Assembly: GCA_021734995.1 (NCBI GenBank)
Contig: JAIPHX010000003.1
Coordinates: 75,969 to 139,968 of the forward strand
From: Minisyncoccota bacterium
GTDB lineage: Bacteria; Patescibacteriota; Minisyncoccia; Phycocordibacterales; UBA9973
DNA: 64,000 nt
Reading direction: 5' to 3'
Shown here: one piece after another, positions 1,176-20,755 of the stretch
How the letters are laid out: each line of letters starts with the position of its first letter
Position numbering within the stretch: position 1 is the stretch's first letter
Notes under the pieces: model-generated
What the model was told of the DNA's origin: nothing
Database searches by the model: none
Seen by the model: the letters and a program-made list of their open reading frames with translations, nothing else
Position numbers and translations under genes: made by a program

Positions 1176-1251
1176 GGGCCCTTAGCTTAGTTGGTAGAGC
1201 GCCTCATTTGCAATGAGGAGGTCAGGAGTTCGAATCTCCTAGGGTCCACCA
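1176..1251 (+). tRNA. tRNA-Ala(UGC)
   Basis: Cloverleaf readable: acceptor gggccct/agggtcc with the G3:U70 Ala identity pair, anticodon loop cuUGCaa, T-loop gttcgaatc, encoded CCA. Confidence 0.9.
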
Positions 1252-2128: not shown

Positions 2129-2448
2129 TCGGGAGTAGCTCAGCGGTAGAGCGGTCGCCTGTGGAAATGTATTACGCAGCTTTCTATCTAAAGATAGATC
2201 GAAAACGAGGTGAATTCGGGGAAGCCCAATCTTATAACAAGAGGGTAATCCCGAGCCAAGCCCTTTAATAGGGAAGGTGTAGAGACTATCCTTTATGGAG
2301 TAGCTTCATAATTTATTTATGTTGCGAAGCGCCTCGCTTCTAAGTCTTGAGAGTAATCAAAAGATATGAAGATGATATAGTCCATACTTCTAGTAATAGA
2401 AGATAAAATGTAAGCGATTGGTCGTAGGTTCGATCCCTACCTCCCGAG
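2129..2448 (+). tRNA. tRNA-Asn(GUU) interrupted by a group I intron (exons 2129..2162 and 2411..2448)
   Basis: Exon 1 is tcgggag-ta-gctcagcggtagagc-g-gtcgc-cugu. Exon 2 is uaa-gcgat-tggtc-gtaggttcgatccctac-ctcccga-g. Acceptor stems are exactly complementary. The spliced anticodon loop is CUGUUAA, identical to the E. coli tRNA-Asn loop. Confidence 0.8.
2163..2410 (+). ncRNA. group I intron (IC3-like) in tRNA anticodon loop
   Basis: The intron follows an exon U that pairs in P1 (ctgt/gcag, U.G at the splice site) and ends with omega-G. Conserved core elements are present: gaattcggggaagcccaa (P/P3-P4), aatcccgagccaagcc (Q), gaaggtgtagagactatcc (R), gaagatgatatagtcc (S). These resemble the Azoarcus/Anabaena tRNA introns. 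Confidence 0.8.
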
Positions 2449-3993
2449 CAATGTTTTGTATTTAGTGCTATTTTTACTTTTTACCTTACTGGTATTAGGT
2501 TTTTTGAGTTCGAAGATTTGTTGAGCGTCAATTCGCTCTTGAATCCTCTTTGAAATCTTTTTTACCGAACTTTTCAATACTGTATTGGCTTTTTTGTCTT
2601 TTAATATCAAGTTCGAAAAAATATGAGATAAAAGCAGTCGGCGCTCCTCCGGACTTCTCTTTTCGTAAATTTCTCTGGCCCGGCGTGCTAGATCAAGGAT
2701 GTTGATGTAAAGCTCAAAGTATTTCGTCTCTTCATTTTTGAGCTTGGTTATTTTATTCTGAATTTCTGCTTGCTCGGCATTTATTTCTTTCTGTTTGCTT
2801 TCCCACTTTTCTGGAGTTATCTTTTCTGACAGTCGGTCGTTGTAGAGTATATCCAACTGCCTCTGTAATGAGTTATAGCGTTGATCCAGAGCTTTAAGAG
2901 TGTTTTCCTTGTATTCAGCTTCTAGCTTGTGATCAGCTTTAATTCTGTCTCGTATAATGTCCGCTTCTTTTTCAGTTATATTTTCAAAGAAACTAAATAC
3001 TCCCATTAAGGAAGTATCCAAATCCGTTTCCTTTGTCATCCCTTTTTGGGTGCATGGTCGGTTGTGCTTGCAGGAGTAGTAAATAGTTCCTTTCTGTATC
3101 TCGCCACTGATTGAGCCACCACACTCTCCGCACTCTATCATTTTACTGAATTGGAATGTATGTCTTTTGTAATGTGGAGATTTTCCGCGTGTTAGCGTAA
3201 ATTGAACCTTTTCAAATAATTCTTTGGATACTAGAGGGGCGTGAAGGCCATTCGTGTAGGTAATGTCATTCCACCTTATACTGCCCATATAGAATGGGTC
3301 GCGTAATATGTCCTCCAACCTGCTCTTTGAGAGCTTGCTACCATTCCGGGTCCTTAATCCATCTTCATACAGCTTTTCTCGCAGAGATATCAATGAATAG
3401 TTCCCGGTTGAGTAATACTCAAACGCTTTTCTCATAAACGGAGCTTTTGTCTCGTCAAACACATGGGTCTTGTGGCCCTTCTCGCCAACTGTTTTGTATC
3501 CAAGTGGTGGTTTGGCTGGAAGCCAACCCTGCGCAATTTTTTCCTTCTGACCTTTTTTCACTTCTTCAGAAAGATTTGAGATGTATTTTTTAGCAAGAAC
3601 TATTTCAATATCCCAACGAAATTTTTCATCTGATTTAGCATTTCTATGAATTACAAGATTTTGCTTCACAAAATGAATTTGTCTTTTTTCATCTGCTTCA
3701 ATCCAGTCATTAGCAACAACTGCTTCTTTTAGATTTCTAGTAAGACGATCAACTTTTTCACAAAGAAGAATTGGTATATTCTTCTTACTAATAAACTCAA
3801 TCATTTCTCCGAATATTTTTCTTTGCTTTGATCCACTAGCTGATTCAGCTATTGAAAAAACTTTTACAACATCAAACCCCTTACGAGTAGCATATTCTAC
3901 AAGTAATTTTTCTTGTGCCGGAAGAGAATAACCAGTTTCTTCTTGTTCTCTCGATGATACTCTGCAATAGATTACACATTTATTTTTTTCCAT
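2437..3993 (-). CDS. large serine recombinase (resolvase/invertase N-domain, recombinase domain, zinc ribbon)
   Basis: N-terminal VIYCRVSSREQ catalytic serine motif and VDRLTRN. Central recombinase domain. CGECGG...YYSC zinc ribbon. Coiled-coil C-terminus. The stop codon overlaps the 3' end of tRNA-Asn. Confidence 0.85.
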   Translation of the reverse strand: MEKNKCVIYCRVSSREQEETGYSLPAQEKLLVEYATRKGFDVVKVFSIAESASGSKQRKIFGEMIEFISKKNIPILLCEKVDRLTRNLKEAVVANDWIEADEKRQIHFVKQNLVIHRNAKSDEKFRWDIEIVLAKKYISNLSEEVKKGQKEKIAQGWLPAKPPLGYKTVGEKGHKTHVFDETKAPFMRKAFEYYSTGNYSLISLREKLYEDGLRTRNGSKLSKSRLEDILRDPFYMGSIRWNDITYTNGLHAPLVSKELFEKVQFTLTRGKSPHYKRHTFQFSKMIECGECGGSISGEIQKGTIYYSCKHNRPCTQKGMTKETDLDTSLMGVFSFFENITEKEADIIRDRIKADHKLEAEYKENTLKALDQRYNSLQRQLDILYNDRLSEKITPEKWESKQKEINAEQAEIQNKITKLKNEETKYFELYINILDLARRAREIYEKRSPEERRLLLSHIFSNLILKDKKANTVLKSSVKKISKRIQERIDAQQIFELKKPNTSKVKSKNSTKYKTLLGR

Positions 3994-6146: not shown

Positions 6147-7100
6147 ATGAAAAAAATACAAATAGTTTTTTTGTTTATTTTTTGCCTTTTTTCTTTTAAT
6201 GCAGTTCATGCAGAAACTTTAATTATCAAATCGGTAGAAAAAAGAATTGAAGATATTGAAAAAATGAGAGAAAAATTAGATAAAGACAATGAGACAAATT
6301 ACAAACAACTCCAAGCCGAACTTAAAAGTTTAAGTGCTCAAATAGATAGTAATATAAAAAGTAATTTTACTTGTGTTCAGCCGGTTGCTATGTGTGATGA
6401 ATCTACTTACCAAAGAATAAGAGGAATCGCTATATCAAATGGTCTTACCCCAGACGCCATCGAACTTGCTCAATGCAGAGCCAAGATCGATGAGTATAAT
6501 CAAAAACTTCAAGAATATAATATATGTTTTCTAAATTGGCAAAATAAAAAGATTGAGGATTCAGCACAAATAGAATATAAAAATCAATTACAAATTTATG
6601 AATTAAAAGCAGAACTTTGGTGTATTGATAAAGAGGGATATTATTCTTCTTACAACAAAAACACTAAAGAATGTGAATGTGTAGAGGGTTCAACTTTTAT
6701 CAATGGAAAATGTAAAAGCAATCTAGAGAATCTTCTTTTTTGTGCCAAAAACTTTGGCTCATTATCTTACAGTGATGAAAAAGGAGCATGTGCATGTGAA
6801 GATGGAAGTCAGTTTGATTGGAATAATAATGGTCTTTGCACTAAAAAAGAAAGATCAGTAACTGAAAACAAGTATATCCCTATTAAAGAGCGTCAAGATA
6901 TCAAAACAGCAATTATCCCATCTTCAGAAGTAAAAGCCCCGGAAATCGCAAAAACAAGGGAGGAATTACCTTCTAAAAGTGAAGTAATCCCAGAGACACC
7001 CTTACCTGTGTCTATTTCTAATACACCAGACAACAAAATACCTCAAACTACCTTTTGGAAGAAATTAAAAATTAGCATATCCAAACTTAAGTTTTGGTAG
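6147..7100 (+). CDS. secreted Cys-rich protein with N-terminal coiled coil and Pro/Thr-rich tail
   Basis: Signal peptide MKKIQIVFLFIFCLFSFNAVHA, more than 14 Cys in the central region, PETPLPVSISNTPDN tail. Confidence 0.5.
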   Translation: MKKIQIVFLFIFCLFSFNAVHAETLIIKSVEKRIEDIEKMREKLDKDNETNYKQLQAELKSLSAQIDSNIKSNFTCVQPVAMCDESTYQRIRGIAISNGLTPDAIELAQCRAKIDEYNQKLQEYNICFLNWQNKKIEDSAQIEYKNQLQIYELKAELWCIDKEGYYSSYNKNTKECECVEGSTFINGKCKSNLENLLFCAKNFGSLSYSDEKGACACEDGSQFDWNNNGLCTKKERSVTENKYIPIKERQDIKTAIIPSSEVKAPEIAKTREELPSKSEVIPETPLPVSISNTPDNKIPQTTFWKKLKISISKLKFW

Positions 7101-7107
7101 AATTTTT

Positions 7108-7371
7108 ATGCAAATAAATTTATTATTTTGGGTATTTATATTGATTACTTTCACTGGAACATCTCTATATTATTTAGGTAAGACAAAAAGAGGTAATCAA
7201 AGTGAAGTTATTAAATTTTCTGGTGGAATTATTACATTTGGCATTTTGATTACTTCTTTCTTTTTCTTGGGGTGGAAAATTGCTATTTTGTTAATCATTA
7301 TAGAATTTACAATTATTAGTTTTGTTTCTGCTTTTTTGATTGAATCTATTATGAAAAAGCGTATTAAATAA
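7108..7371 (+). CDS. small membrane protein
   Basis: Three predicted TM segments. No homology recognised. Confidence 0.4.
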   Translation: MQINLLFWVFILITFTGTSLYYLGKTKRGNQSEVIKFSGGIITFGILITSFFFLGWKIAILLIIIEFTIISFVSAFLIESIMKKRIK

Positions 7372-7389
7372 TTTATTTATAAAAGTTTT

Positions 7390-7818
7390 ATGGATAAAGA
7401 TATAGAAAAATTAAAATTATTAACAATAAACATGCTTCAAGAAACACAAAATAATGACATGGAACACAAACAACAATTAAAAAATTTAGTAATAAGTATT
7501 TTATTAACCCTTTTGCCGATTCTGATATTTATGCTAATTCCCAGTATGGGAAATAAATACTTTGATATGTTTTCCGGTAGAATAATGTATATTAGCTCTG
7601 ATCATTTCTTTTCTTTTTCACCAATCTTTGTTTTGAATTTACTGTATTTTCTACCACCAATAATCTGGATCTTTTCAATATGGTTTTGTCTTAAAATTAG
7701 AAGAGGAATACAAGACCGAAAATCATTTTTTAACTATTTCAATTTAATTTTAATTGTTTTAGGTAGTGTTGAACTCTTATATTCTTTATGGTTTTTATAT
7801 AGGTATTATTTACTGTAA
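7390..7818 (+). CDS. membrane protein
   Basis: Multiple hydrophobic helices. No homology recognised. Confidence 0.4.
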   Translation: MDKDIEKLKLLTINMLQETQNNDMEHKQQLKNLVISILLTLLPILIFMLIPSMGNKYFDMFSGRIMYISSDHFFSFSPIFVLNLLYFLPPIIWIFSIWFCLKIRRGIQDRKSFFNYFNLILIVLGSVELLYSLWFLYRYYLL

Positions 7819-7902
7819 ATGTGCTAGAATAAACTTATATCAGAAAATATTAGGTATCTATTTTGAGATTGGATATCTTTTTGGTTTTATTTTGAAAATG
7901 AG

Positions 7903-9468
7903 ATGAAAATAAAGAAAATACAACTTATAAATTTTAAGAGATTTGATGATTTGACAATTGATTTAGGGAATATGCCTAAAAAGATTATTGCTTTAGTCGG
8001 CCCCAATGGATCAGGAAAAAGTTCGGTTTTTGATGCATTTGAAGAAAAACTTAAAAACTATAAGGGGACACATCAACAAGAACACGCTTCTTTTTTTGCT
8101 AAACTTTATTTTTCGATTTTTCCTGAAAAGAAAAGTGAATCTTATAATAAAGAAAATTCTATAAAAATAGAAAATGACAATAATAATGAATTTAATAAAA
8201 AAAGTTTTTACATAAGAACAGCCTATCGATTTACTTCAAGATTACAGGTAGATAATTTGAGAAAATTACCTGATGTGATTGATGATGTTAATAGGCCTTA
8301 TAGCTCAAATGCTATGGATAATAGATTGCAGGAAAATTATGAACGGATGTTAAGTAAAGCCTTTCAAGAATTTTTTAATGACACTTCTGGCAAGACGGGT
8401 TTAGTAACAAGAAAGGAACTTATTGATAAAATCAATAATATTTTAGGTAATATTTTAGATATTAAAATATCAAACATTGGTGATGTAACTCAAGGAAAAG
8501 GGCAATTGTTCTTTGAAAAAGAAAGTTCAAAAGATTTTCCTTTTGAAAATCTATCTTCTGGTGAAAAAGAGGTGGTAGATATTATTATAGATTTAATTAT
8601 AAAAACCCCAGAATATGATAACACTGTTTATGCTATAGATGAGCCTGAATTACATCTTAATACTAGCATTCAAAGAAAATTATTGATTGAAATTGAAAAA
8701 CTTATTCCTGATAATTGTCAGATATGGGTAGCGACACACAGTGTGGGATTTTTAAGATCCTTACAAGAAGAACTAAAAGAAAAATCCCAAATAATTGATT
8801 TTTCAGAAAAAGATTGTTTTAATGGAACTCAAACTGCTTACCCAATCAAAACAACTAGACAAAACTGGCAAAGAATTTTTCAAACTGCCCTAGAAGACCT
8901 CACTGGATTAGTAGCTCCAGAAGTAATAATTTATTGTGAGGGTAGACCGGACCCAACAAATTCAGGAGGAGAACAAGGGTTAGACGCAAGTATTTATAAC
9001 TTAATTTTTGGAGAAACTAACCATAATACATTATTTGTCTCGAGTGGAGGAAATGATGTAATTGCTAATTCTACCCTAGCATTAAAAATAATAACTAAAG
9101 CATTTACTAAAGTAAAATTATTTCTACTTAAGGATCGTGACGATCTAACTGAGCAGGAAAGAATCGATTTTCTTGGTGCTTCAAGTAGTAATAAGATGTT
9201 GGAAAGAAGAGAAATAGAAAATTATGTTTTTGACTATGAGATACTAAATGCCTACGCAGTTTCAATAAGTAATAATATAAATAAAACGGATTATGATAAA
9301 ATTGTAACTGATATAGAAAATCAAGATCTTAAATTAGGAACTACTATGGTGGATTTACAAAAATTAGTAAATGGTAAAGGTTCTTTGGAGAGTTTCAAAA
9401 TAGAGTTGTCAAAATTCATAATTCCTACCACAGAAGTATATAAAAGACTTTACACAGTAATTTTTTAA
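7903..9468 (+). CDS. OLD/PARIS-like ABC ATPase fused to Toprim/DUF4435-like domain
   Basis: N-terminal IKKIQLINFKRF. Walker A GPNGSGKSS, signature-like LSSGEKE, Walker B VYAIDEPELHLN (the DEPExHLHP hallmark of AAA_21/OLD), H-loop ATHS. The C-terminus carries a Toprim-like Glu (IIYCEG), DxD (LKDRDDL) and a terminal EIENYV. Confidence 0.65.
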   Translation: MKIKKIQLINFKRFDDLTIDLGNMPKKIIALVGPNGSGKSSVFDAFEEKLKNYKGTHQQEHASFFAKLYFSIFPEKKSESYNKENSIKIENDNNNEFNKKSFYIRTAYRFTSRLQVDNLRKLPDVIDDVNRPYSSNAMDNRLQENYERMLSKAFQEFFNDTSGKTGLVTRKELIDKINNILGNILDIKISNIGDVTQGKGQLFFEKESSKDFPFENLSSGEKEVVDIIIDLIIKTPEYDNTVYAIDEPELHLNTSIQRKLLIEIEKLIPDNCQIWVATHSVGFLRSLQEELKEKSQIIDFSEKDCFNGTQTAYPIKTTRQNWQRIFQTALEDLTGLVAPEVIIYCEGRPDPTNSGGEQGLDASIYNLIFGETNHNTLFVSSGGNDVIANSTLALKIITKAFTKVKLFLLKDRDDLTEQERIDFLGASSSNKMLERREIENYVFDYEILNAYAVSISNNINKTDYDKIVTDIENQDLKLGTTMVDLQKLVNGKGSLESFKIELSKFIIPTTEVYKRLYTVIF

Positions 9469-9470
9469 TT

Positions 9471-10499
9471 ATGGCATATCCACTTATAATTTTTGGAGCA
9501 GGAGCATCTCATGATTTTTCACCCTTAGGGAAAATGGCCCCTCTTACTAATGATCTCGCAGAAGATCAATTTATTCATTCTGGATTTCTTGAAAAATACA
9601 AAGGGGCAGGAAATTTATTAGTAGAAATAATCAATCAAGTAAAAAGTCGCAAAAGAAATTTTGAAGAAGTTTTGACTGAAATACAGAATGATTCCATAAA
9701 ATCTGAGGCTATGCGAAGACGATTCGTAGATTTTGAATTTTATTTAAGAGATTTGTTTTCTTATATTTCAAAACCACATGACTTAAATCGTAAAATACAT
9801 CAAGCTAATAATTATCATGCAATAATAAATCGCATTGATACTTATACAAACGGGAAAGCGTTAATAGCAACATTTAATTATGATTCTTTATTTGAAAATA
9901 GTCTTAGCTCCTTAAAACCAAAAAACATGAGAGATTATATTTCAAGTGATATTAAAATTATTAAATTGCATGGTTCTCATGATTGGGGTTATATTAGAAG
10001 AACATCAGAAATGGAAAGAAAGCATCTTGGTATAAAAGATGGCTATGAACTTTCCATAAAAGAACCTGACATTCTTAAGGAAATTAAAGAGGGTAAATAT
10101 GACCCATATCATATTCAAGAAATAGAAGAAAATGCTGAAAAAAATGATTTTAACTCATTTCCTGCTATAGCTATTCCTTTGATAGGGAAAGATAAATATG
10201 TATGTCCGACTCAACATATTAAAGTTTTTGAACAACATTTACCACAGATAGATAGAGTTTTAATTGTTGGTTGGAGAGCAGAAGATCCATTACTACTTGA
10301 AACACTGAAAAATAATTTACCAAAAGAAGGAGGATATAAAGTTCTTGTTGTTTCTTGGACACTTGAAGGGGCTCAAAAAATAGCCAAGAAAGTTAAAGAA
10401 GGTCTTGGTATTCTTAATGATTTTTATGTTCAAGCCAGAGGAAATGGTTTTTCAACATTTATGGCGGATGAAGCTTCAAAGATTTTTTTCTCTCAATAA
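9471..10499 (+). CDS. SIR2-like (SIR2_2/DHS-like NAD-binding) domain protein
   Basis: LIIFGAGASHDF at the N-terminus. ATFNYDSLFE and IIKLHGSHDW match the TTNYD...KLHGS hallmarks of defence-associated SIR2_2 domains. Starts 3 nt after the ATPase gene. Confidence 0.6.
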   Translation: MAYPLIIFGAGASHDFSPLGKMAPLTNDLAEDQFIHSGFLEKYKGAGNLLVEIINQVKSRKRNFEEVLTEIQNDSIKSEAMRRRFVDFEFYLRDLFSYISKPHDLNRKIHQANNYHAIINRIDTYTNGKALIATFNYDSLFENSLSSLKPKNMRDYISSDIKIIKLHGSHDWGYIRRTSEMERKHLGIKDGYELSIKEPDILKEIKEGKYDPYHIQEIEENAEKNDFNSFPAIAIPLIGKDKYVCPTQHIKVFEQHLPQIDRVLIVGWRAEDPLLLETLKNNLPKEGGYKVLVVSWTLEGAQKIAKKVKEGLGILNDFYVQARGNGFSTFMADEASKIFFSQ

Positions 10500-10504
10500 T
10501 TATT

Positions 10505-10942
10505 ATGAAAACAATTATACAAATTTTAATAATTTCATTTTTAATTATTCCTAATTTTTCATTTGCTCATCCGGGCCGAACAGATTCTTCTGGTTGTCAT
10601 ACTTGTCGGACAAATTGTTCTAATTGGGGATTATCTACGGGTGAGTATCATTGTCATAATGCTAAAGCATTGCCACAACCAGAAGAGCCAATTAAAAGCA
10701 CTTATGGAGAAAACGGGACCGGATACACAACACTAGCACCGGAGTATAAGATTCCAGCAACACCTAAAAAAGTAATTCCAAAAGTTGTTGAACAAAAACC
10801 TGTTTCTACTACGCCCATAAACAAAATTGAAACATCACAAAATACAAAAATAGAAACTCCCGCTCCTTATCCAGTTCCAATACAAACCCCAGAACCTGTT
10901 AAGAAAAAAAGTTTCTGGTCAAAGATATTTTGGTTTTGGTAA
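10505..10942 (+). CDS. secreted protein with YHYH-like Cys/His motif
   Basis: Signal peptide. HPGRTDSSGCHTCRTNC...GEYHCHN resembles the HPGxxDxxGGH...YHYH domain. Pro-rich C-terminus. Confidence 0.4.
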   Translation: MKTIIQILIISFLIIPNFSFAHPGRTDSSGCHTCRTNCSNWGLSTGEYHCHNAKALPQPEEPIKSTYGENGTGYTTLAPEYKIPATPKKVIPKVVEQKPVSTTPINKIETSQNTKIETPAPYPVPIQTPEPVKKKSFWSKIFWFW

Positions 10943-10951
10943 ATAATTTTT

Positions 10952-11581
10952 ATGACAGCTAAAGATCATGTAAAAGAATGGTTAGATAGTATCTCTAAAC
11001 GAGGTGGCTATATAGAAAAACAAGAAATTATTTTTCTAATGGTTCAAGCACGACACTTAATCGAAAACCACCCCAATATCTCTAAATATAGAACAATTGA
11101 ATTTTATAGTAATTGGGTAGTTCATACTCAACTGGATAGACCATCAGAAGTGAGTTTATCTATATTTCGAGACATCACAAAAATACTTTCAGCTAATTGG
11201 AATCCTACTGACCCAGAAATGGGAAATCAAATATCAAAAGTAATTGGCCTTTCCACTTTAAGAACTGAACTTGTCTCTTTATTTCAAGAGAATAATCTTA
11301 ATGTTGAACTTTTTAGTATTTATGAAAATTGGAAAAATATCGCAGTATTTTTGATTTACTTTTTGCAAAATAAACCATTGGTATTTCCTAAAACTACAAA
11401 AAATAAGTTTAAGCTCCTTATTGAAGAAATAATGAATCTTAAGAAACCGGCTGACTTTTGGATAAAAAACTTATCTATAATCGGGATAGATAATCGTCCC
11501 CATTGGTGCTTTGAATTAGGGGGTGAAAAAAATACTACGAAAATTATTGGAGAACTATTTATTGAAAAAGACCCTGCTTAA
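10952..11581 (+). CDS. hypothetical protein
   Basis: 209-aa ORF with no motif. It is the last gene before the first cassette-boundary repeat. Confidence 0.4.
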   Translation: MTAKDHVKEWLDSISKRGGYIEKQEIIFLMVQARHLIENHPNISKYRTIEFYSNWVVHTQLDRPSEVSLSIFRDITKILSANWNPTDPEMGNQISKVIGLSTLRTELVSLFQENNLNVELFSIYENWKNIAVFLIYFLQNKPLVFPKTTKNKFKLLIEEIMNLKKPADFWIKNLSIIGIDNRPHWCFELGGEKNTTKIIGELFIEKDPA

Positions 11582-11649
11582 TTAAACAAAAGAGATTTAA
11601 TTTCTGCTAGTGCAATACTAGGGAAAGGATATTCATTTAGCCAATCTAT

Positions 11650-11738
11650 CGTTCGAAAGTCATCCACCAAAGCGAGCCATCAAAAAACAGCTCAAATACT
11701 GGGCTGTTTTTTTGTTACCCCAATAGGGTTCAGAACTC
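11650..11738 (+). repeat. cassette-boundary repeat copy R0 (degenerate, contains terminator hairpin)
   Basis: cgttcgaaagtcatccaccaaagcgagcca ... agggttcagaactc. The embedded hairpin aacagc-tcaaatactgg-gctgtt plus T7 (11686..11713) is followed by tttgttataat and the ATG at 11751. Confidence 0.6.
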
Positions 11739-11750
11739 AAATTTGTTATA

Positions 11751-12461
11751 ATGGTAGTAATGAAAAAGATTATTATCTATTTTTTATCGGCAATACTCAT
11801 TCTCGTAGTTTGTGGATATGGACTGCTTCAAATCAGTAAATCACGCACTTTTCAATTTTTCGGCAGTATCGTAAACCGAGTTGATACTGAAGAAAAAGTT
11901 ATTGCCCTCACATTTGATGACGGACCAGAGACACACACGAATGAGATACTGGATGTACTGCAGGAAAAGCAAATAAAAGCCACATTTTATGTGATTGGTG
12001 AAAGATTGCAGGAAAACTTAGAGATTGGACAGCGTATTACTGATGAGGGACACGAACTTGGCAACCATTCGTACACGCATCAGAGATTTTTATTCAAACC
12101 TCTATCTTTTATAGATAGTGAAATTCAAAATACAAATCAACTTATCCGAGAAGCAGGATATGAAGGAGCTATAACATTCCGCCCTCCTTATGGAAAAAAG
12201 CTTCTGGGACTTCCTTGGTATCTAAATAAACACAACATTGAAACTATTATGGTTGATGTTGAACCTGATACTTATGGCACAACGTCGGACTTCTTTGTTG
12301 AATATACGATTGCAAATACAAAAGCTGGCTCTATTATACTTCTTCACCCATTTTGTGAGACCTGTAGTGAACAAAGAAAAGCTGTTCCGCTAATAATAGA
12401 TGCACTGAAGGAAAAGGGTTATACATTTGTTACGGTTTCTGAATTGCTTTCCAGAAGATAA
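11751..12461 (+). CDS. polysaccharide deacetylase (NodB homology domain)
   Basis: TFDDGPETHT...GNHSYTHQ motifs of carbohydrate esterase family 4. N-terminal TM anchor. Confidence 0.75.
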   Translation: MVVMKKIIIYFLSAILILVVCGYGLLQISKSRTFQFFGSIVNRVDTEEKVIALTFDDGPETHTNEILDVLQEKQIKATFYVIGERLQENLEIGQRITDEGHELGNHSYTHQRFLFKPLSFIDSEIQNTNQLIREAGYEGAITFRPPYGKKLLGLPWYLNKHNIETIMVDVEPDTYGTTSDFFVEYTIANTKAGSIILLHPFCETCSEQRKAVPLIIDALKEKGYTFVTVSELLSRR

Positions 12462-12538
12462 ATCACTTAGCTAAAGCTATAAGATTATTGATTGTATTCA
12501 AATGATATTCAGGATCGGGATATAAAGTAGCCCAGTCA

Positions 12539-12648
12539 AAAGTTCGAAATGCACACCTCCATTCGAGCAAAATAAAACGTAGAGAATACGCTGATACATA
12601 TAGAGTTAAAAGTGTGAAATATCCTACCTGTGAACAGGGTTCGAACTT
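12539..12648 (+). repeat. cassette-boundary repeat copy R1 (variant 5' half)
   Basis: aagttcgaaatgcacacctccattcgagcaaaat ... cagggttcgaactttt. It shares a ~70-bp upstream extension (gatattcaggatc...) with copy 13201..13275. Confidence 0.65.
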
Positions 12649-13143
12649 TTACAATAACTTCCTAACTCTTTCAGTAAATGTATTCATATGGTAATGAAGT
12701 GGAAAAGGTACAAGCACTCCATTGTTTACAACGTTGAACCCGTCCTCGAGGAGAGGTTTTTCTAATAATCTACAAATGTTAGATTTGACTAAAATGATAG
12801 GTATCTGTTTGTCGCCTATAATAGATCGCAAATCATTCTTGAAGTTTTCGTAATTAGACAAAATAAGTTTGTCCGCTTCTTTATCTGAGAGTTTATTAAC
12901 CGGGGTGTAAATTGGATTAACTAACAAATATCCCTTACTAGCCAATTTCTTCAAACCCTCATCTTTGTTGGTGGGAGAGAAATCTATAACGGCTTTCATA
13001 AAGGCACGAAACAATACTTCCGAAACACGTCCACTTGGATCGTAAAAATAACCGTGACCTGCTGGCGGGGACTCTAATACAAAAATAGCCTTAATCTTTT
13101 TAGGTAGATATTTATTCCGTAGAGAAACATAGTCCGTGTCCAT
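12649..13143 (-). CDS. hypothetical protein (inverted cassette)
   Basis: 164-aa ORF on the opposite strand to most cassettes. No motif recognised. Confidence 0.45.
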   Translation of the reverse strand: MDTDYVSLRNKYLPKKIKAIFVLESPPAGHGYFYDPSGRVSEVLFRAFMKAVIDFSPTNKDEGLKKLASKGYLLVNPIYTPVNKLSDKEADKLILSNYENFKNDLRSIIGDKQIPIILVKSNICRLLEKPLLEDGFNVVNNGVLVPFPLHYHMNTFTERVRKLL

Positions 13144-13200
13144 ATAAGTATTATATAAAAATTAGCGTGCCAAAGCGATTAGTCTGTCGATTTGCCCTAA

Positions 13201-13275
13201 GTGATATTCAGGATCTGTGTATACACCAACCCAATCAAAAGTTCGAAATGCGTCCCTCCACTCGAGCCAACAAAT
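13201..13275 (+). repeat. cassette-boundary repeat, 5' half-copy
   Basis: gtgatattcaggatctgtgtatacaccaacccaatcaaaagttcgaaatgcgtccctccactcgagcc. No 3' GTTCGAACC partner. Confidence 0.55.
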
Positions 13276-14163: not shown

Positions 14164-14440
14164 ATATTATTAATATACCTTATTTTTCCTTATTCAGACA
14201 GTTTCAAACATCATCCCAAACTCGGATCCATTTTAAAAAATTATATTTTATAATAATCATTTTGATACTAGATAGGGAAACTAAGTCATACATAAGTATC
14301 TCATATAAAAGGTAGGGGTCGTTTCCAGGGTCCAGAGACCCCCCTGCTTGCGTTTCTATAATAATTCTATATTAAAGATAATAAATGAGTAATCTCCTTG
14401 TTTGTTGTTTCTATGTCTCCCACAGCTTTAGGCCAATCAT

Positions 14441-14528
14441 AAGTTCGGAAAGCAGACTCCCACGCGAGCAGAGTTTAACCCATATTTTATAAAGGTTATT
14501 TTTCGGAGGTTAGTATAAGTTCGAACCT
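14441..14528 (+). repeat. cassette-boundary repeat copy R2
   Basis: aagttcggaaagcagactcccacgcgagcagag ... cccatattttataaaggttatttttcggaggttagtataagttcgaacct. A degenerate 5' half also sits at 14203..14230. Confidence 0.7.
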
Positions 14529-14576
14529 AAGTATATAGTGCTACTTACAGTGGGATAAATATGATAAGATAAAAAA

Positions 14577-15062
14577 ATGACAGAAGAATTTTCAAAACCT
14601 AATTTTAATTTAGAAAATATAATTGATCAAAAAATATTTGATAAAAATAGGAATTTTCATGGAGTAAAAGGTCTTGTTTTTATCGGTGATAAAATTCTTA
14701 CATACAGAAGAGATACTAAAACAAAAAGTTTTCCACTATATATAGATTTACCTGGTGGTGGTAAAGAAGAAGGTGAATCGCCATTTGATACTTTTAAAAG
14801 AGAGACTAAAGAAGAATTTGGAATTGAAATAAATCCTGATGATGTAAAATATGCAAAACAATATATGAGTGCAATGGATACAACCAAGGAATCATATTTT
14901 ATTGTTGTTAATCCATTAAATATGAAAGAAAGCGATGTAGTTTTTGGAGATGAAGGATTAGAGCCTGTGTTAATTACCCCTGATGAATATTTGAAGTTAA
15001 ATGATGCAATCAAAAGACAACAGGATAAAGTAGTAGATTACCTAGCTACATTTAAAGAGTAG
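14577..15062 (+). CDS. NUDIX hydrolase
   Basis: Nudix box GGGKEEGESPFDTFKRETKEEFGI (Gx5Ex7REUxEExGU). Confidence 0.75.
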   Translation: MTEEFSKPNFNLENIIDQKIFDKNRNFHGVKGLVFIGDKILTYRRDTKTKSFPLYIDLPGGGKEEGESPFDTFKRETKEEFGIEINPDDVKYAKQYMSAMDTTKESYFIVVNPLNMKESDVVFGDEGLEPVLITPDEYLKLNDAIKRQQDKVVDYLATFKE

Positions 15063-15086
15063 ATTATTCTTTCTCTAATATACTCC

Positions 15087-15172
15087 CTCGAACTTCATCC
15101 CAAGTTCGGAGCCATTTTTTGAACCTTAATTTGCAATGGTTATTTTTCGAAGGTTAGTAGAAGTTCGAACCT
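15087..15172 (+). repeat. cassette-boundary repeat copy R3
   Basis: cctcgaacttcatcccaagttcggagcc ... ggttatttttcgaaggttagtagaagttcgaacct. Confidence 0.7.
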
Positions 15173-15196
15173 ACTCTTTATGTTATAATTCCCTTT

Positions 15197-15967
15197 ATGA
15201 AAGAATTTCAGAAACCTATTGGTAGGTTAGATGGCCATACTTTTGTTTTAGGTACTGCTGTCAAAAAAGAAATAATCGGGATTTTGTCAAAAAAATCCTC
15301 TCAAAAAGCAACTCAAGAAACTCTAGCTGCTTTTGTTCCTGAAAGAGTTCGAAGTGTTGCTGTAAATCCAAAAAACATAGAACTCTATCAACTTTCCGAT
15401 GAACAAGGTGAAATTTCAGTACTAGTACTTGAAAAAGATTATCCTACTAAACTAACTGATAAAGAAGAGTATAGTAAGTGGAAACACAATATTGAATTAG
15501 CAAAACAAGTACAAGAAAGAGTAAGATTCAAAATCTTACCTAATGCTCCTACCTCTGTAAACAAACTACATGCAAAATTTAGTTCACTAATTGACTCAGG
15601 ATATTTATCTCTCTCTACTAGAGTCCTTATGTTTACCAAAGTATTATTATACCCAAGCAATCCAGAGGCTTTATTTGTGAAAGATTTTGATGGTGAGACT
15701 CAGCAAGGGATTGGGCAAGATTTTTATAAAAACCAACTCCCAGTATTGGCTAAGAATTTAGGACTAAGGTTTGTTGTAGGACAAAATAATGGCGGAAATT
15801 TTACTTTCTTCAAGGATACACTAGGAAGATATACTCAGGAAGACTTGAAACCAGAATTCAGAGTTGTGCTCTTTCCTGATCATATAAATGATAGATTTTT
15901 TACTATTCAGTTTTTATATCCTGAAGATATTGAGAAATATGTCCAGAAAGAAGCAATTAAGTCTTAA
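15197..15967 (+). CDS. hypothetical protein (cassette)
   Basis: 256-aa ORF between two repeat copies. No motif recognised. Confidence 0.45.
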   Translation: MKEFQKPIGRLDGHTFVLGTAVKKEIIGILSKKSSQKATQETLAAFVPERVRSVAVNPKNIELYQLSDEQGEISVLVLEKDYPTKLTDKEEYSKWKHNIELAKQVQERVRFKILPNAPTSVNKLHAKFSSLIDSGYLSLSTRVLMFTKVLLYPSNPEALFVKDFDGETQQGIGQDFYKNQLPVLAKNLGLRFVVGQNNGGNFTFFKDTLGRYTQEDLKPEFRVVLFPDHINDRFFTIQFLYPEDIEKYVQKEAIKS

Positions 15968-15976
15968 GTAATACCA

Positions 15977-16062
15977 TTCGAACATCACCCCAAGTTCGGA
16001 GCAGAATTTCAAACCATATTTTATAAAGGTTATTTTTTGGAGGTTAGTAGAAGTTCGAACCT
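15977..16062 (+). repeat. cassette-boundary repeat copy R4 (near-consensus)
   Basis: ttcgaacatcaccccaagttcggagcagaatttcaaaccatattttataaaggttattttttggaggttagtagaagttcgaacct. The -10 tgatataat (16065..16073) follows, with a GTG start at 16080. Confidence 0.75.
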
Positions 16063-16079
16063 AATGATATAATTCCTTT

Positions 16080-16532
16080 GTGAATAATTTTCTCCAGCAA
16101 GCAATAGAATTATCAAAAAAATCTATCGAACAAGGAGGTTTTCCTGTTGGTGCTCTAGTGGTAAAAGATGAGGTCATAATCTCTGAAGGACTTAGTGACG
16201 GAAAAAATAGAAAGGACGCTACTAGCCACGCGGAGATCGAAGCAATAAGAAACGCCTCAATTAAATTAGATACTCGTGACTTAAAAGGTTGTGAAGTATA
16301 CTCTTCGATGGAACCTTGTCTTATGTGTTTTTCTGCTTGTTATTGGGCAAAAATAACAAAGATAGTATATGCCGTCGGAAAGGATAAACTTTCCAAGCAA
16401 CATTATGAAGGATTACATTCAATTGAAAATATCAATACAGAAAATAACAGGCAAATTGAAATTATTCATATCAAAGAATTAGAAAACGAAGCTCTTTCCC
16501 TTATCCAAGATTGGGAAAAGAATCTAAGATAG
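16080..16532 (+). CDS. CMP/dCMP-type zinc deaminase (TadA/guanine deaminase-like)
   Basis: HAEIEAI ... SSMEPCLMCFSAC zinc-binding motifs (H-A-E, PCxxC). GTG start. Confidence 0.7.
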   Translation: MNNFLQQAIELSKKSIEQGGFPVGALVVKDEVIISEGLSDGKNRKDATSHAEIEAIRNASIKLDTRDLKGCEVYSSMEPCLMCFSACYWAKITKIVYAVGKDKLSKQHYEGLHSIENINTENNRQIEIIHIKELENEALSLIQDWEKNLR

Positions 16533-16535
16533 CCA

Positions 16536-16621
16536 TTCGAATATCATTCCAAGTCTAGAGTCAACAAAATCACCTTATTTTACACGGTGATTTTTTCCTA
16601 CCTTGATATAAGTTCGAACCT
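16536..16621 (+). repeat. cassette-boundary repeat copy R5 (central terminator hairpin)
   Basis: ttcgaatatcattccaagtctagagtc-aacaaaatcacc-ttattttacac-ggtgatttttt-cctaccttgatataagttcgaacct. A 9-bp stem plus T-run sits in the variable core. Confidence 0.7.
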
Positions 16622-16649
16622 AAATGTTTTTTGTGTATAATATAAATAT

Positions 16650-17534
16650 ATGAAAAAACAGAAATTGGGATTTATTGGGCTTGGCCTGATGGGAAAATAT
16701 ATGACTCTTAATTTACTCAAAAACAAGTATCAAGTCGTCGGGTATAATCGTTCAAAGAAGGTATTAAATGAATTAAAAAAATCAGGTTTAATTATTGCTC
16801 AAAATCCTAAAGAGATAGCTCTTAGAAGTGAAATTATAATTTTAATGTTGCCGAGCTCAAAAGAAACAGGTGAGGTTATTTTCGGCAAGAGTGGATTAAT
16901 TGAGGGTTTAAGAAAGGGGCAGGTTGTTATTGATATGAGCACTTCTAACCCCGCAGAAACTAAAAAGATAATGGAAGTTTTGAAAAAGAAAGGTGTGTTT
17001 ATGATGGATGCTCCAGTGTCTAGGGGGCAAAAAGCAGCAGTCGCAGGAGTTCTGTCTATAATGGTTGGTGGTGATAAAAAGATTTTTAATAAATGTTTAC
17101 CAATTTTTAAAGCAATGGGGGAGTATGTAGTATATTTAGGATCTTTTGGTTCCGGGTTGTATGTGAAAGCATTAAATAACTTTCTTTTTGCAATGAACTT
17201 ATTGGCAAGTAGTCAGGGATTGATGATGATAAAGAAAAATAAGATAGATTTAAAAAAGGCAATAGAAGTTATTGAAGAGAGTTCAGGAAATAATACAGCT
17301 CTATCTCCATCTATTAAAAATCGTCTTGGTGAAAAACATCCTTCTATTGGTTTTTATCTTAAACATATGGCTAAGGATATGAAGATATTTAACGATGTTG
17401 TAAAAGATCAAAAGATCTACAATACTCTTGCAAAACCCGTTTCTGACTTTTTCGCAAAAATGGCAAAGTTGCACACTGGTAAAGATTCAATGTATTTGTT
17501 TGAGCATTATGTGGTAAAAAGCAATAAAAAATAG
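16650..17534 (+). CDS. NAD-binding 3-hydroxyisobutyrate/6-phosphogluconate dehydrogenase-family oxidoreductase
   Basis: N-terminal Rossmann motif LGFIGLGLMGKYM. Overall length and layout fit the HIBADH family. Confidence 0.6.
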   Translation: MKKQKLGFIGLGLMGKYMTLNLLKNKYQVVGYNRSKKVLNELKKSGLIIAQNPKEIALRSEIIILMLPSSKETGEVIFGKSGLIEGLRKGQVVIDMSTSNPAETKKIMEVLKKKGVFMMDAPVSRGQKAAVAGVLSIMVGGDKKIFNKCLPIFKAMGEYVVYLGSFGSGLYVKALNNFLFAMNLLASSQGLMMIKKNKIDLKKAIEVIEESSGNNTALSPSIKNRLGEKHPSIGFYLKHMAKDMKIFNDVVKDQKIYNTLAKPVSDFFAKMAKLHTGKDSMYLFEHYVVKSNKK

Positions 17535-17566
17535 TATTTACCACTTATTTTTTTCCATTAAACTTA

Positions 17567-17652
17567 TTCGAACATCACCCCAAGTTCGGAGCAAAATTTT
17601 CGCCCATATTTTATAAAGGTTATTTTTCGGAGGTTAGTAGAAGTTCGAACCT
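17567..17652 (+). repeat. cassette-boundary repeat copy R6 (consensus)
   Basis: ttcgaacatcaccccaagttcggagcaaaattttcgcccatattttataaaggttatttttcggaggttagtagaagttcgaacct. Confidence 0.75.
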
Positions 17653-17738
17653 AAATATATATATTGATACCCACTGTGGGGGAAATATGATAAATTTTGC
17701 ACATATTCTACATAGGCGTGAGATGATATAATGAGACC

Positions 17739-18299
17739 ATGAAACAAGTACTTGGTCTTAGAAAGGGATTTGTTAAGATAGAAAAATATAATCCCTTGTG
17801 GCAAAAAGAGTTTGACAAAGAAAAGAAAAACTTGAAAAAAATTTTTGGTGATGTTTCTCTATCAATAGAACATGTAGGATCTACTTCAGTTGTAGGCTTG
17901 TCTGCAAAACCAATAATTGATATTGCTATTGGAGTTGATTCACTAAAAGACATAGCACAAGTTAAAGAGAAAATATTAAAGTTCTCGCATTATTCGATCA
18001 AGGAAAATAACGCAGATGGTGAAATCCTTATGAGAAGAGGTGTGCCAATAAAGTTGGGTGAAGATAAACCAAATTTTATAACTCATTTTATTCACATTAT
18101 GGAAATAGATAGCAGGAAATATAAGGAAACACTAATATACCGTGATTATCTAAGAAAAAATAAAGAAGTCCTAAAAGAATATGATAATCTAAAGAAAAAG
18201 TTGGCTATAAAATACCAGAAAGAAAGAAAATCTTATACTAAAGCAAAGGATGAGTACATCAAAAGTATTTTAAGTAAGTGTAATAGCTCGAATTTATAG
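17739..18299 (+). CDS. GrpB-family (nucleotidyltransferase-fold) protein
   Basis: HVGSTSVVGLSAKPIIDIAIGV matches the GrpB/UPF0157 signature. Confidence 0.6.
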   Translation: MKQVLGLRKGFVKIEKYNPLWQKEFDKEKKNLKKIFGDVSLSIEHVGSTSVVGLSAKPIIDIAIGVDSLKDIAQVKEKILKFSHYSIKENNADGEILMRRGVPIKLGEDKPNFITHFIHIMEIDSRKYKETLIYRDYLRKNKEVLKEYDNLKKKLAIKYQKERKSYTKAKDEYIKSILSKCNSSNL

Positions 18300-18411
18300 T
18301 ACTGATTTGTAGCTAGACCCTTCTTACTACAACTTATTCGTAAAACTTATTACAGTATTACGATACTTACGATATATTTATATATCTTTTATTTATCATT
18401 CAATATCTCTT

Positions 18412-18497
18412 GTCGAACATCATCCCAAGTTCGGAGCAAAGTTTTAAGCAATATATCCCAATGGTTAGTCTTCTTACCTTAGTAAAAGTTCGAACCC
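18412..18497 (+). repeat. cassette-boundary repeat copy R7
   Basis: gtcgaacatcatcccaagttcggagcaaagttttaagcaatatatcccaatggttagtcttcttaccttagtaaaagttcgaacc. Confidence 0.7.
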
Positions 18498-18556
18498 CAT
18501 TGATACTTGCACGGTTTTACTAATGTGATATAATAGGCGTATCACTATGAAGAAGA

Positions 18557-18595
18557 CCCTTATGTAGATTCGTCTACATTGGGGGCTTTTTCTTT
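18557..18595 (+). terminator. rho-independent terminator hairpin (bidirectional context)
   Basis: cccttatgtaga-ttcg-tctacattgggg is a ~11-bp stem followed by ctttttcttttt. It is preceded by promoter-like tgtgatataat (18522..18532) and a tiny ORF (MKKTLM). Confidence 0.5.
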
Positions 18596-19078
18596 TTAGG
18601 CTTTATTTGAGAATTTGTGGTAGTGGTCGTTTAAGAAGGTTATTTCTGTATTTTTATTTCTCAATAAAATAGAGCACTTCTTCTCATCTGGAGCAATAAT
18701 GCAATCCATCGATTTATTTTCTTTTAGAAATTCTACTAAACACCCAAAGTCACCATCTCCTGTTATTAAGATACAAGAATTAAATGATTTAGTATAAAAA
18801 TCAGATGTGGCTTTTAGCACAAGCTCAGCGTCGCAATTTCCTTTTATTTTCTCTCCGATAGATACAGTTTGCTTAAAAATTAAAATATAACCGCACTTTT
18901 GAAGATGTTCATAGAACTTTGTCCTCTCTGGTACTAGCCCAATGAATAGATATACAATCCCTGGATTATATTTTTGACGGAGCCAGCCACGAAATTTTTT
19001 ATAATCAATCTCGAATCCCAGTTCCTTGGCTGATCTGTATAAGTTATTTCCATCAATGTAAATGTTTGCCTTGTTCAT
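18596..19078 (-). CDS. NYN/LabA-like PIN-fold domain protein (inverted cassette)
   Basis: IYIDGNNLY at the N-terminus and ILITGDGDF match the conserved acidic motifs of the NYN domain. Confidence 0.6.
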   Translation of the reverse strand: MNKANIYIDGNNLYRSAKELGFEIDYKKFRGWLRQKYNPGIVYLFIGLVPERTKFYEHLQKCGYILIFKQTVSIGEKIKGNCDAELVLKATSDFYTKSFNSCILITGDGDFGCLVEFLKENKSMDCIIAPDEKKCSILLRNKNTEITFLNDHYHKFSNKA

Positions 19079-19120
19079 TACGTAATTATATCACCCCTTA
19101 ATCCTTTAACAATATACTTA

Positions 19121-19206
19121 TTCGAACATCACCCCAAGTTCGAAGTCAACAAAATCACTTTATTTTACAATGTGATTTTTTATTACTTTAATAGGAATTC
19201 AAATCT
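19121..19206 (+). repeat. cassette-boundary repeat copy R8 (central terminator hairpin, degenerate 3' end)
   Basis: ttcgaacatcaccccaagttcgaagtc-aacaaaatcac-tttattttacaa-tgtgattttttatt...ggaattcaaatct. The -10 atgatataat and an ATG at 19223 follow. Confidence 0.7.
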
Positions 19207-19222
19207 ATGATATAATTTTTGC

Positions 19223-20086: not shown

Positions 20087-20095
20087 ATAAATATA

Positions 20096-20192
20096 TTCTA
20101 ACGTTCTCCCAAGTCCGAAGCAAAATCTCTAACTTTATTTCATAAGGAATTTTTTTCCTACAATTTTAGGAACTATTGCGAAGTTTGAACCT
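20096..20192 (+). repeat. cassette-boundary repeat copy R9 (degenerate)
   Basis: ttctaacgttctcccaagtccgaagcaaaatctc ... ggaactattgcgaagtttgaacct. The -10 tgataaaat and an ATG at 20213 follow. Confidence 0.6.
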
Positions 20193-20212
20193 GTGATAAA
20201 ATTATTGACAAT

Positions 20213-20608
20213 ATGAAACAATCAATTGCTCTTACATCGTTAGTTGTTGCAGATTACGATGAGGCTATTAATTTTTATACAAAAAAACTTCATTTTTCTT
20301 TAATTGAAGATACATATCAACCAGAAGAAAATAAGAGATGGGTAGTTGTTGCTCCACCAGGTTCTTCTAGTTCTCAGCTTCTATTAGCAAAAGCATCTAC
20401 ACCTGAACAAAAATTATTTATCGGTAATCAAACTGGGGGAAGAGTATTTCTTTTTCTAAATACTGATGATTTTTGGAGAGATTATAAAGAAATGATTTCT
20501 GTGGGAATTGAATTTGTGAGAGAACCCAAGACTGCTTCTTTTGGGACATTTGCTGTCTTTAAGGACTTGTATGGAAATTTATGGGACTTAATTGAGGTAA
20601 AAAAATAG
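20213..20608 (+). CDS. VOC-family (glyoxalase/bleomycin-resistance fold) protein
   Basis: 131 aa. Paired beta-alpha-beta-beta-beta modules. The C-terminal FGTFAVFKDLYGNLWDL is typical of VOC proteins. Confidence 0.6.
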   Translation: MKQSIALTSLVVADYDEAINFYTKKLHFSLIEDTYQPEENKRWVVVAPPGSSSSQLLLAKASTPEQKLFIGNQTGGRVFLFLNTDDFWRDYKEMISVGIEFVREPKTASFGTFAVFKDLYGNLWDLIEVKK

Positions 20609-20634
20609 GATTTTTTATTTTCCTACAATACTCA

Positions 20635-20667: not shown

Positions 20668-20755
20668 AAAGATAGCTATTAATACATATAAAGTATATGC
20701 TTAATATATTATCTTGTTTTGTCGGGAACATGGACTTATTCTAGATTTTTATTTT

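Follow-up and report, generated by a model that had tools for sequence, protein, structure and literature searches.

In Lamassu, an SMC-like ATPase, LmuB, works with a LmuA-Sir2 effector (PMC12663957). The PARIS system has a documented single-gene form in which AriA and AriB are fused (Rousset et al., 2022, PMC9122126; Burman et al., 2024, PMC11464382). OLD proteins, including Gabija GajA and the OLD effector of retron Eco8, likewise hold an ABC ATPase head and a Toprim domain in one polypeptide. SIR2 catalytic cores occur in SIR2-HerA (Nezha; PDB 8w9l, 8wld and 8j4u), and also in ThsA, DSR1/DSR2, SIR2-STAND Avs5 and SPARSA, in which a dedicated sensor is either built in or supplied by a partner (SLOG, long C-terminal repeats, STAND or pAgo). 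Genes resembling both kinds of protein stand side by side in a Minisyncoccota bacterium (Patescibacteria/CPR), in a 64,000-nt window of contig JAIPHX010000003.1, the whole stretch of DNA analyzed here. Gene A (7903..9468, + strand) encodes 521 aa and gene B (9471..10499, + strand) 342 aa. The initial annotation joined the two into a new coupled module, with A as sensor and B as SIR2 effector. Such a coupling of a PARIS/OLD sensor to a SIR2 effector would, if true, be a new defence architecture, but the comparative evidence is against it; A and B are probably two independent adjacent accessory genes rather than a coupled system.

Both ORFs were found on the + strand at the coordinates first reported, and every motif quoted for the two proteins is present in its place in the translations; only the spacing differed, trivially, being 2 nt and not 3 nt. 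Judged by sequence, A and B are both real genes, since database entries from a ‘Candidatus Pacebacteria bacterium’ MAG (P0001 and P0097) match them identically and each has many homologs. Their motif residues are invariant or nearly so in family alignments. Co-transcription of the pair in the window is probable because the genes are adjacent, lie on the same strand and are separated by 2 nt with no predicted terminator between them. This spacing is itself unremarkable, as the neighboring intergenic gaps of this run measure 7, 18, 5 and 9 nt. Scans for promoters and terminators around the pair were uninformative, returning fewer sites than in shuffled sequences.

The mobile surroundings initially described were all recovered in the window. 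They comprise a large serine recombinase (2437..3993, − strand; Pfam Resolvase, 1.2e-20, and Recombinase, 6.7e-16), a cassette-type array of attC-like repeats in ~96-nt units (~14.2 to 25.8 kb), and signal-peptide-bearing Cys-rich ORFs on either side of the pair (6147..7100 and 10505..10942). A tRNA-Ala gene lies at 1176..1251. The recombinase is context, a mark of a mobile or accessory region, and has no part in the function of either gene; it shares 26% identity with the recombinase found beside an XRE gene and an A homolog in another locus (L175). Two ways of enclosing the pair in a mobile unit were considered and rejected. No att-type direct repeats were found that could delimit a recombinase-bounded element around A and B, and no attC-like repeats flank them as a single cassette, the array starting beyond about 12.6-14.2 kb. 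No relevant neighbor of the pair in the window was found to recur near homologs of A or B.

By its domains and motifs, A is an ABC ATPase with a DUF4435-type Toprim tail, the architecture of a single-polypeptide PARIS-like AriA-AriB fusion. The head (residues ~1-296; 7903..8790, + strand) matches Pfam AAA_21 (3.9e-20) and AAA_15 (2.1e-15), the type of N-terminal ATPase present in fused AriAB. It contains the Walker A motif GPNGSGKSS (residue 33, nt 7999-8025), the signature LSSGEKE (residue 217, nt 8551-8571), the Walker B motif IDEPELHLN (residue 245, nt 8635-8661) and the H-loop ATHS (residue 277, nt 8731-8742), all on the + strand. The tail (residues ~300-521; 8800..9465, + strand) contributes IIYCEG with the catalytic Glu (residue 342, nt 8926-8943), LKDRDDL with the DxD (residue 409, nt 9127-9147) and EIENYV (residue 437, nt 9211-9228), also on the + strand. 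The catalytic residues of the tail are intact on family alignment: E346, D411, D413, E437 and E439 are invariant in the A family alignment (A2), and E346, D411, D413 and E439 in a wider alignment of tails (A4). In the structural model, a strand at 341-345 leads into E346 and another at 405-410 into D411-x-D413.

Several searches connect this tail to AriB. The top PADLOC model for A is AriAB (PDLC02981; E 2e-35, 120.7 bits), covering residues 100-455, and AriAB is the sole PADLOC match when the tail is searched alone (5.6e-6). In hhalign, the tail-family profile A4 aligned with seven Pfam-verified DUF4435 tails (probability 98.3%, E 2.5e-14), its CEG, DRD and ExEN columns lining up with the DUF4435 catalytic E, DxD and ExEN. 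A itself gave no direct Pfam DUF4435 match; its membership is supported by homology at the profile level instead of a score above the Pfam threshold. DUF4435 is nevertheless matched by 8 of 43 A relatives (Pfam, 0.01), one relative (P0322) passes the family cutoff (PF14491; 33.9 bits vs 27), and tblastn with A reaches a protein annotated by NCBI as ‘DUF4435 domain-containing protein’. The A family forms a clade lying below the Pfam DUF4435 threshold, and an XRE regulator gene and a serine recombinase often precede its members. These results uphold the initial reading of A as an ATPase with a Toprim/DUF4435-like tail. Structure databases were less telling for the tail: Foldseek searches with the whole protein were dominated by the ATPase head, so that the Toprim fold went unseen there, the tail-only profile A4 found no significant match among PDB sequences by hmmsearch and did not reach AriB, and a mixed profile (A3) found ATPases only. 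The neighbors of the ATPase, in structure and in sequence, include AriA. Tail relatives of 220-300 aa were considered as stand-alone AriB proteins and rejected, as none of the 10 scanned matched DUF4435 and at least one is a fragment of a fused protein.

The A family is large, with more than 2,483 homolog clusters (defined at 90% identity) of ~520 aa. Elsewhere most members either stand alone or follow a small XRE HTH gene (67-68 aa) that is missing at the window copy, while the genes downstream vary; two relatives on plasmids are solitary. From these contexts, A appears to be self-sufficient in other genomes. When genome contigs were scanned with the A alignment, most matches were generic ABC ATPases and only four were full length, so that the scan was of little use for context statistics.

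The best explanation is that A would be a divergent single-polypeptide PARIS, in which an AriA-like ATPase head is fused to an AriB-like DUF4435 nuclease tail. Like fused AriAB, it has an AAA_21/AAA_15 ATPase followed by a DUF4435-type Toprim domain with the conserved Glu, DxD and ExEN, finds AriAB as its best PADLOC model, and stands alone on DNA of mobile or accessory type. It differs in being very divergent, with a tail that falls short of both Pfam DUF4435 and PDB AriB, and in the XRE regulator found upstream of many of its relatives. By analogy with two-gene PARIS, we infer that the head would sense a phage-encoded trigger and that the Toprim tail would then be allowed to cut nucleic acid (host tRNA is the probable target), halting translation and aborting the infection. 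The release of AriB that activates two-gene PARIS is ruled out in A by the covalent fusion; because head and tail are joined, activation would instead proceed by conformational change or oligomerization. To our knowledge, no biochemical function has been described for the fused form. The proposal that A is a mere sensor in need of an effector does not hold, as A has a nuclease-type domain of its own and matches the single-gene AriAB form.

B is confidently placed in the SIR2 fold (sirtuin-type Rossmann) by its AlphaFold model, a single domain with pLDDT 95.2 and pTM 0.93. The top 50 Foldseek matches in the PDB are all sirtuin or SIR2 chains, the best being 8wld, the SIR2 of SIR2/HerA (1.4e-6); the fold search also recovered the SIR2 chains of EfAvs5 and SPARSA. 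A profile of B against PDB sequences found 8w9l_A at 3.9e-7. The protein carries FGAGAS (residue 8, nt 9492-9509), TFNYDSLFE (residue 134, nt 9870-9896) and KLHGS (residue 165, nt 9963-9977), all on the + strand, and these motifs align with TNYD and KLHGS of PsSIR2. In an alignment of 40 family members, G9-A-G-A-S13, N136-Y-D138, K165 and G168 are invariant, and H167 and S169 are kept in at least 90%. The assignment of B to SIR2 with catalytic motifs was thus borne out by the fold search and the invariant residues, and no non-SIR2 fold emerged among the top 50 matches. Pfam SIR2_2 (PF13289) scored 19.6 bits on B against a cutoff of 24.5, and many B homologs carry a precomputed PF13289 match. 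B is best described as a candidate NADase, a stand-alone, single-domain SIR2_2-like protein.

Among described proteins, the best sequence-profile and fold matches of B are the SIR2 subunits of SIR2-HerA, which share its GAGAS, TxNYD and KLHGSxxW motifs and its approximate size (~340-415 aa). Identity to them is only ~14-15%, with a TM of about 0.5, and no HerA-type ATPase was found beside B in the window or in those B homolog loci for which gene tables were available. ThsA, DSR1/DSR2, Avs5 and SPARSA have the same catalytic core together with a sensor, whereas B is a bare SIR2. For Thoeris in particular, B gave no ThsA match in PADLOC, contains no SLOG domain and has no TIR-domain neighbor. 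A solitary SIR2 of 342 aa without a sensor domain raises the question of its regulation.

The B family is rare and patchy, comprising 96 clusters that are mostly from Patescibacteria, and its members (matches of 191-430 aa) are solitary. Their contexts vary, with recombinases, R-M genes, toxins, Fic or a diversity-generating retroelement nearby; one homolog (P0005) is monocistronic between genes on the opposite strand. No B relatives were found on PLSDB plasmids. A scan of genome contigs with the single B sequence found no relatives, and an alignment-based metagenome scan succeeded instead. A literature search on Patescibacteria, SIR2 and defence systems found nothing. By analogy with defence SIR2 proteins, the likeliest activity of B would be NAD+ hydrolysis, exerted alone or with an unlinked partner.

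Two further readings concern the individual genes. B might not be a defence NADase but an NAD-dependent protein deacylase, an ADP-ribosyltransferase or another CPR regulatory enzyme: canonical sirtuins (SIRT1/2/3/5, CobB and Sir2Tm) appear among its fold matches with similar scores, its SIR2_2 score is below threshold and no known defence partner adjoins it. The leading matches in both sequence and fold are, however, the defence subunits 8w9l and 8wld, and the precomputed PF13289 matches, the patchy distribution over 96 clusters and the shifting company of recombinases, R-M genes, toxins, Fic and the retroelement point the same way, making a non-defence B unlikely. A more improbable reading takes A for an OLD-family nuclease, either Class 1 stand-alone or similar to GajA, working on DNA as an ATP-regulated nickase or exonuclease and not as a PARIS-type protein. 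The layout of ABC ATPase and Toprim domain is common to OLD proteins, and Foldseek gives long whole-chain alignments of A with the retron Eco8 OLD nuclease (694 columns) and GajA (642 columns), to which a weak PDB sequence match of the ATPase head to OLD 6p74 can be added. Against this, the tail is of the DUF4435 (AriB) type and does not match an OLD-type Toprim model. Pfam searches found no Toprim or OLD family on A, even with E allowed up to 1, and none in 43 relatives with a cutoff of 0.01, and the PADLOC match to GajA is weak (1.3e-11) and confined to residues 134-284. Retron partners are likewise missing, and neither a UvrD-like GajB gene nor any helicase domain was found in the ORFs neighboring A.

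A very unlikely reading is that A and B form one recently assembled, lineage-specific system in which A senses infection and activates an NAD-depleting B. Same-strand genes 2 nt apart with no terminator-like site between them would suit such a system, as would the absence of a sensor domain from B and the defence-type relatives of both families. ATPase and SIR2 combinations also have precedents in SIR2-HerA and in Lamassu-Sir2, whose ABC/SMC-type ATPase and SIR2 effector come nearest to the proposed arrangement. LmuB, however, has coiled-coil arms and no Toprim domain, where A has a Toprim tail; the C-terminal domain specific to LmuA is absent from B; no Lamassu model was found among the PADLOC matches of B or the best 25 for A; and Lamassu genes are co-conserved, unlike A and B. 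The module reading falls because the two genes are not neighbors elsewhere. No A-like ORF was found in 91 B-homolog loci in all, among them a first 85 (46 of these with 1.6 kb or more of flanking sequence on a side) and the further loci L166-L170. Around the six closest B lineages (40-61% identity), a gene-by-gene inspection of the called genes found no ABC ATPase. Conversely, none of 12 loci with a full-length A homolog yielded a B-like ORF, and the partner is also missing beside the informative close A homologs and the two plasmid relatives of A. Fusions of A and B were absent from the matches, in which B relatives span 191-430 aa, the listed A relatives 478-579 aa and tail-domain proteins up to 683 aa. 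The families differ more than 25-fold in size, the genes of this run are closely packed in general, and A already has a nuclease effector domain.

Two independent accessory genes of defence type in a variable region thus remain the preferred account of the locus, within which a lineage-specific functional link may still exist as far as the sequences tell. One speculative form of it, to which little probability is given, is that a fused PARIS-like A in the Pacebacteria lineage recently captured an orphan minimal SIR2 as a second effector, so that cleavage of tRNA or other nucleic acid would be joined to NAD+ depletion in a dual-effector system that has not yet spread; in a more modest variant, the B family would be a new class of stand-alone SIR2 immune effectors, sensor-less and self-regulated, enriched in CPR.

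As judged from its domain order, A is a further member of a known architecture, the fused PARIS type, and its clade raises the question of how PARIS-type activation works when the nuclease cannot leave the ATPase. B represents a family of bare SIR2 proteins of ~345 aa, found mainly in Patescibacteria, whose catalytic motifs are intact and which have no partner gene linked to them; if these proteins are NADases, they would offer a convenient minimal model for SIR2 regulation. A and B, each with a presumed role in defence, also enlarge the still thin record of defence-type genes from CPR.

Gene A (7903..9468, + strand) encodes a 521-aa protein and gene B (9471..10499, + strand) one of 342 aa, with a gap of 2 nt between them. 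These coordinates agree exactly between the window ORF read-out and the initial annotation, which had joined the two genes into one candidate defence module, and all the motifs it quoted lie where it had placed them. Its domain identities stand; the two-gene module does not. Proteins identical to both products are deposited from a 'Candidatus Pacebacteria bacterium' MAG, on a contig of 142.8 kb (P0001, P0097), which places the host in the candidate phyla radiation (CPR; Patescibacteria).

The C-terminal ~220 residues of protein A have no match in a Pfam scan. Scanned whole against PADLOC, the protein scores best with the fused 'AriAB' model (2e-35, residues 100-455), which is also the sole PADLOC match of the tail alone (5.6e-6). 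A phmmer search of 1.8 billion representatives returned 380 relatives of the tail, most within ~520-560-aa proteins of equal layout. Pfam DUF4435 matched 8 of 43 sampled tail relatives, and one relative (P0322) exceeds the DUF4435 gathering threshold, at 33.9 vs 27 bits, exactly over the aligned region. On plasmids, tblastn aligned residues 174-498 with a gene from Burkholderia labelled 'DUF4435 domain-containing protein' by NCBI. Two fold searches with protein A were swamped by its ATPase head, and the Toprim assignment of the tail rests on profile comparison. The reference profile comprised seven annotated DUF4435 tails, all seven passing Pfam DUF4435 (best 3.2e-62). Against it, hhalign placed the A-tail family profile at 98.3% probability (E 2.5e-14, 102 columns), pairing CEG with VEG, DRDD with DRD and EIENY with EVENL. 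The catalytic residues of the Toprim are retained, as the initial annotation had proposed, with E346, D411, D413 and E439 invariant across the family alignments. In the AlphaFold model they lie just beyond strands 341-345 and 405-410; catalytic residues directly after such strands are expected from the general Toprim layout.

The AriAB model match and the DUF4435 profile-profile match bear out the proposed domain call, and by its sequence protein A joins an ABC ATPase to a DUF4435-type Toprim. This combination on one chain defines single-gene PARIS (PMC9122126; PMC11464382). Protein A resembles fused AriAB in its ATPase, its DUF4435 tail, its catalytic residues and its detection-model match, and is filed on these sequence features as a divergent member of that form. 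Two A-family genes are interrupted. The Phascolarctobacterium copy (L089:5968-7607) consists of two overlapping ORFs, apparently from a frameshift, and a Campylobacter coli plasmid copy (L187:1719-3226) carries annotations for an AAA ATPase gene and a separate DUF4435 gene, with a 28-nt overlap. Such interrupted copies may be pseudogenes, or routes between fused and two-gene forms.

Protein B falls below the Pfam SIR2_2 threshold (19.6 vs 24.5 bits), and its PADLOC SIR2 matches are weak. Its homologs form 96 clusters, many with a precomputed PF13289 match. Across the family alignment, G9-A-G-A-S13, N136-Y-D138, K165 and G168 are invariant, while H167 and S169 are kept by 90% or more of the members; in sirtuins this set of residues serves NAD binding and catalysis. 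Among PDB sequences, the family profile matches 8w9l_A (3.9e-7), the SIR2 subunit from a complex of SIR2-HerA type. With the AlphaFold model (pLDDT 95.2, pTM 0.93), the best 50 Foldseek matches in the PDB are all SIR2/sirtuin chains, headed by SIR2/HerA 8wld (1.4e-6). Model, fold matches and conserved motifs together confirm the SIR2 fold assigned initially. Protein B is a SIR2 superfamily member consisting of a single domain, with no sensor or partner-binding domain.

By analogy with PARIS, the ATPase head of protein A would detect a phage trigger, whereupon the DUF4435 Toprim would cleave nucleic acid, probably tRNA, causing translation arrest. Two-gene PARIS releases its nuclease on activation, whereas protein A cannot, because head and nuclease are covalently joined in one chain; activation would presumably proceed via conformational change or oligomerisation. 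Protein B, judging from its motifs and nearest relatives, would hydrolyse NAD+.

Other readings of either protein fare less well. Protein A differs from Gabija and OLD in both tail type and partner and belongs to neither; an OLD/GajA-type DNA nuclease is improbable, since the tail is DUF4435 and not OLD-type and the helicase is missing. The nearest relative of protein B is the SIR2 of SIR2-HerA, but the defining partner of that system is missing beside it. Thoeris, DSR, Avs5 and Lamassu-Sir2 are excluded, as the defining partner or extra domain of each is absent. That protein B is a sirtuin outside defence is unlikely, if less so than an OLD/GajA-type protein A.

A coupled A and B module is the least probable of these alternatives. 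Its nearest precedent is Lamassu, in which the ABC/SMC ATPase LmuB occurs with a LmuA-Sir2 effector (PMC12663957); every architectural detail differs, however, and the Lamassu genes are co-conserved whereas A and B are not. Among 85 B-homolog loci, gathered by looking up three close homologs and by an alignment-driven metagenome scan, no ORF matched the A-family HMM (E < 1e-5); in 46 of them the flank on one or the other side reaches 1.6 kb or more. An A-like ORF is also absent from additional B loci (L166-L170). Read gene by gene, six close B lineages (61, 58, 55, 52, 48 and 40% identity) have no ABC ATPase neighbour, and in one the SIR2 gene is monocistronic, flanked by opposite-strand genes. 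Conversely, none of 12 full-length A-homolog loci holds a B-like ORF at E < 1e-3; the downstream genes differ (R-M, unknowns, transposases, or nothing). No SIR2 gene is annotated alongside two plasmid A relatives or the plasmid DUF4435 reference proteins, and no match in any search was long enough for an A-B fusion. Family A is more than 25 times as large as family B (>2,483 clusters vs 96). The 2-nt gap is unremarkable, since the eight co-directional genes at 6147-12461 are separated by 7, 18, 84, 2, 5, 9 and 169 nt. Co-conservation as neighbours, set beforehand as the refutation test, is absent from both sides, and the module hypothesis fails accordingly; a singular functional link, peculiar to this lineage, is a residual possibility.

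The accessory surroundings described initially are all present. A tRNA-Ala(TGC) gene (1176..1251) marks the left edge of a low-GC stretch (0.24-0.30 at 4-10 kb vs roughly 0.31-0.33 across most of the window), next to a large serine recombinase gene (2437..3993, - strand) 4 kb upstream of gene A. These features would fit an integration hotspot; the tRNA-Ala/recombinase region showed no flanking att repeats, and no attC-like or att-like repeats bracket A and B as one unit. Cys-rich ORFs with signal peptides lie at 6147..7100 and, just downstream of gene B, at 10505..10942. The latter encodes a secreted, Cys/His-rich protein of 145 aa with no match in a Pfam scan. Its GEYHCH motif recalls a tiny 'YHYH domain-containing protein' gene (L182:1015-1143) upstream of a Rhizobium fused DUF4435 gene, probably by coincidence. 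Two 102-nt direct repeats, 74% identical (12470-12571 and 13169-13270), bracket a minus-strand ORF (12649..13143) between polysaccharide deacetylase and APH-type kinase genes.

From ~14.2 to 25.8 kb (14198-25778), imperfect ~96-nt repeats with inverted TTCGAAC...GTTCGAA ends alternate with successive small + strand ORFs, with weaker copies near 12636 and 26218-26693. Their core pattern occurs 14 times vs 2 expected. The whole resembles an attC-type cassette array, its cassettes coding for NUDIX, GrpB, a 3-hydroxyisobutyrate-type dehydrogenase and unknowns; none of the ORFs scanned was identified as an integron integrase.

No other neighbour of the pair in the window recurs near either family. 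Three independent lineages do share small secreted DUF3761-type proteins lying no more than 3 kb from the B-family SIR2 gene (L001:6121-6546, L004:4222-4509, L067:3845-4384; also L002, L005, L006 and L069), which could be chance in CPR genomes. On a Taylorbacteria-type contig, a diversity-generating retroelement signature (RVT_1 reverse transcriptase and bAvd; L001:312-1717, L002:312-1717) lies ~3 kb upstream of a B-family SIR2 gene. Contexts of B homologs are variable and mobile-looking: for example, L166 combines a serine recombinase and type III R-M genes, L003 has a PemK toxin, L004 has Fic, and L001 has this retroelement.

A-family genes have a recurrent context of their own. In five loci an XRE-type HTH (XRE/HTH_3) gene of 67-68 aa sits 2-25 nt upstream (L171:1423-1629, L174:3792-3998, L175:3789-3992, L176:1500-1703, L177:995-1198), an arrangement spanning several CPR and other genomes. 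A complete, divergently oriented large serine recombinase adjoins the XRE gene in L174 and L175, and L171 and L176 have cut-off ORFs at this position whose N-termini match. The window copy of A has no XRE gene, and the window recombinase is 26% identical to that of L175. XRE gene, recombinase and A homolog may constitute the native regulated, mobile unit of the fused PARIS-like clade, and A and B behave as independently mobile accessory cargo.
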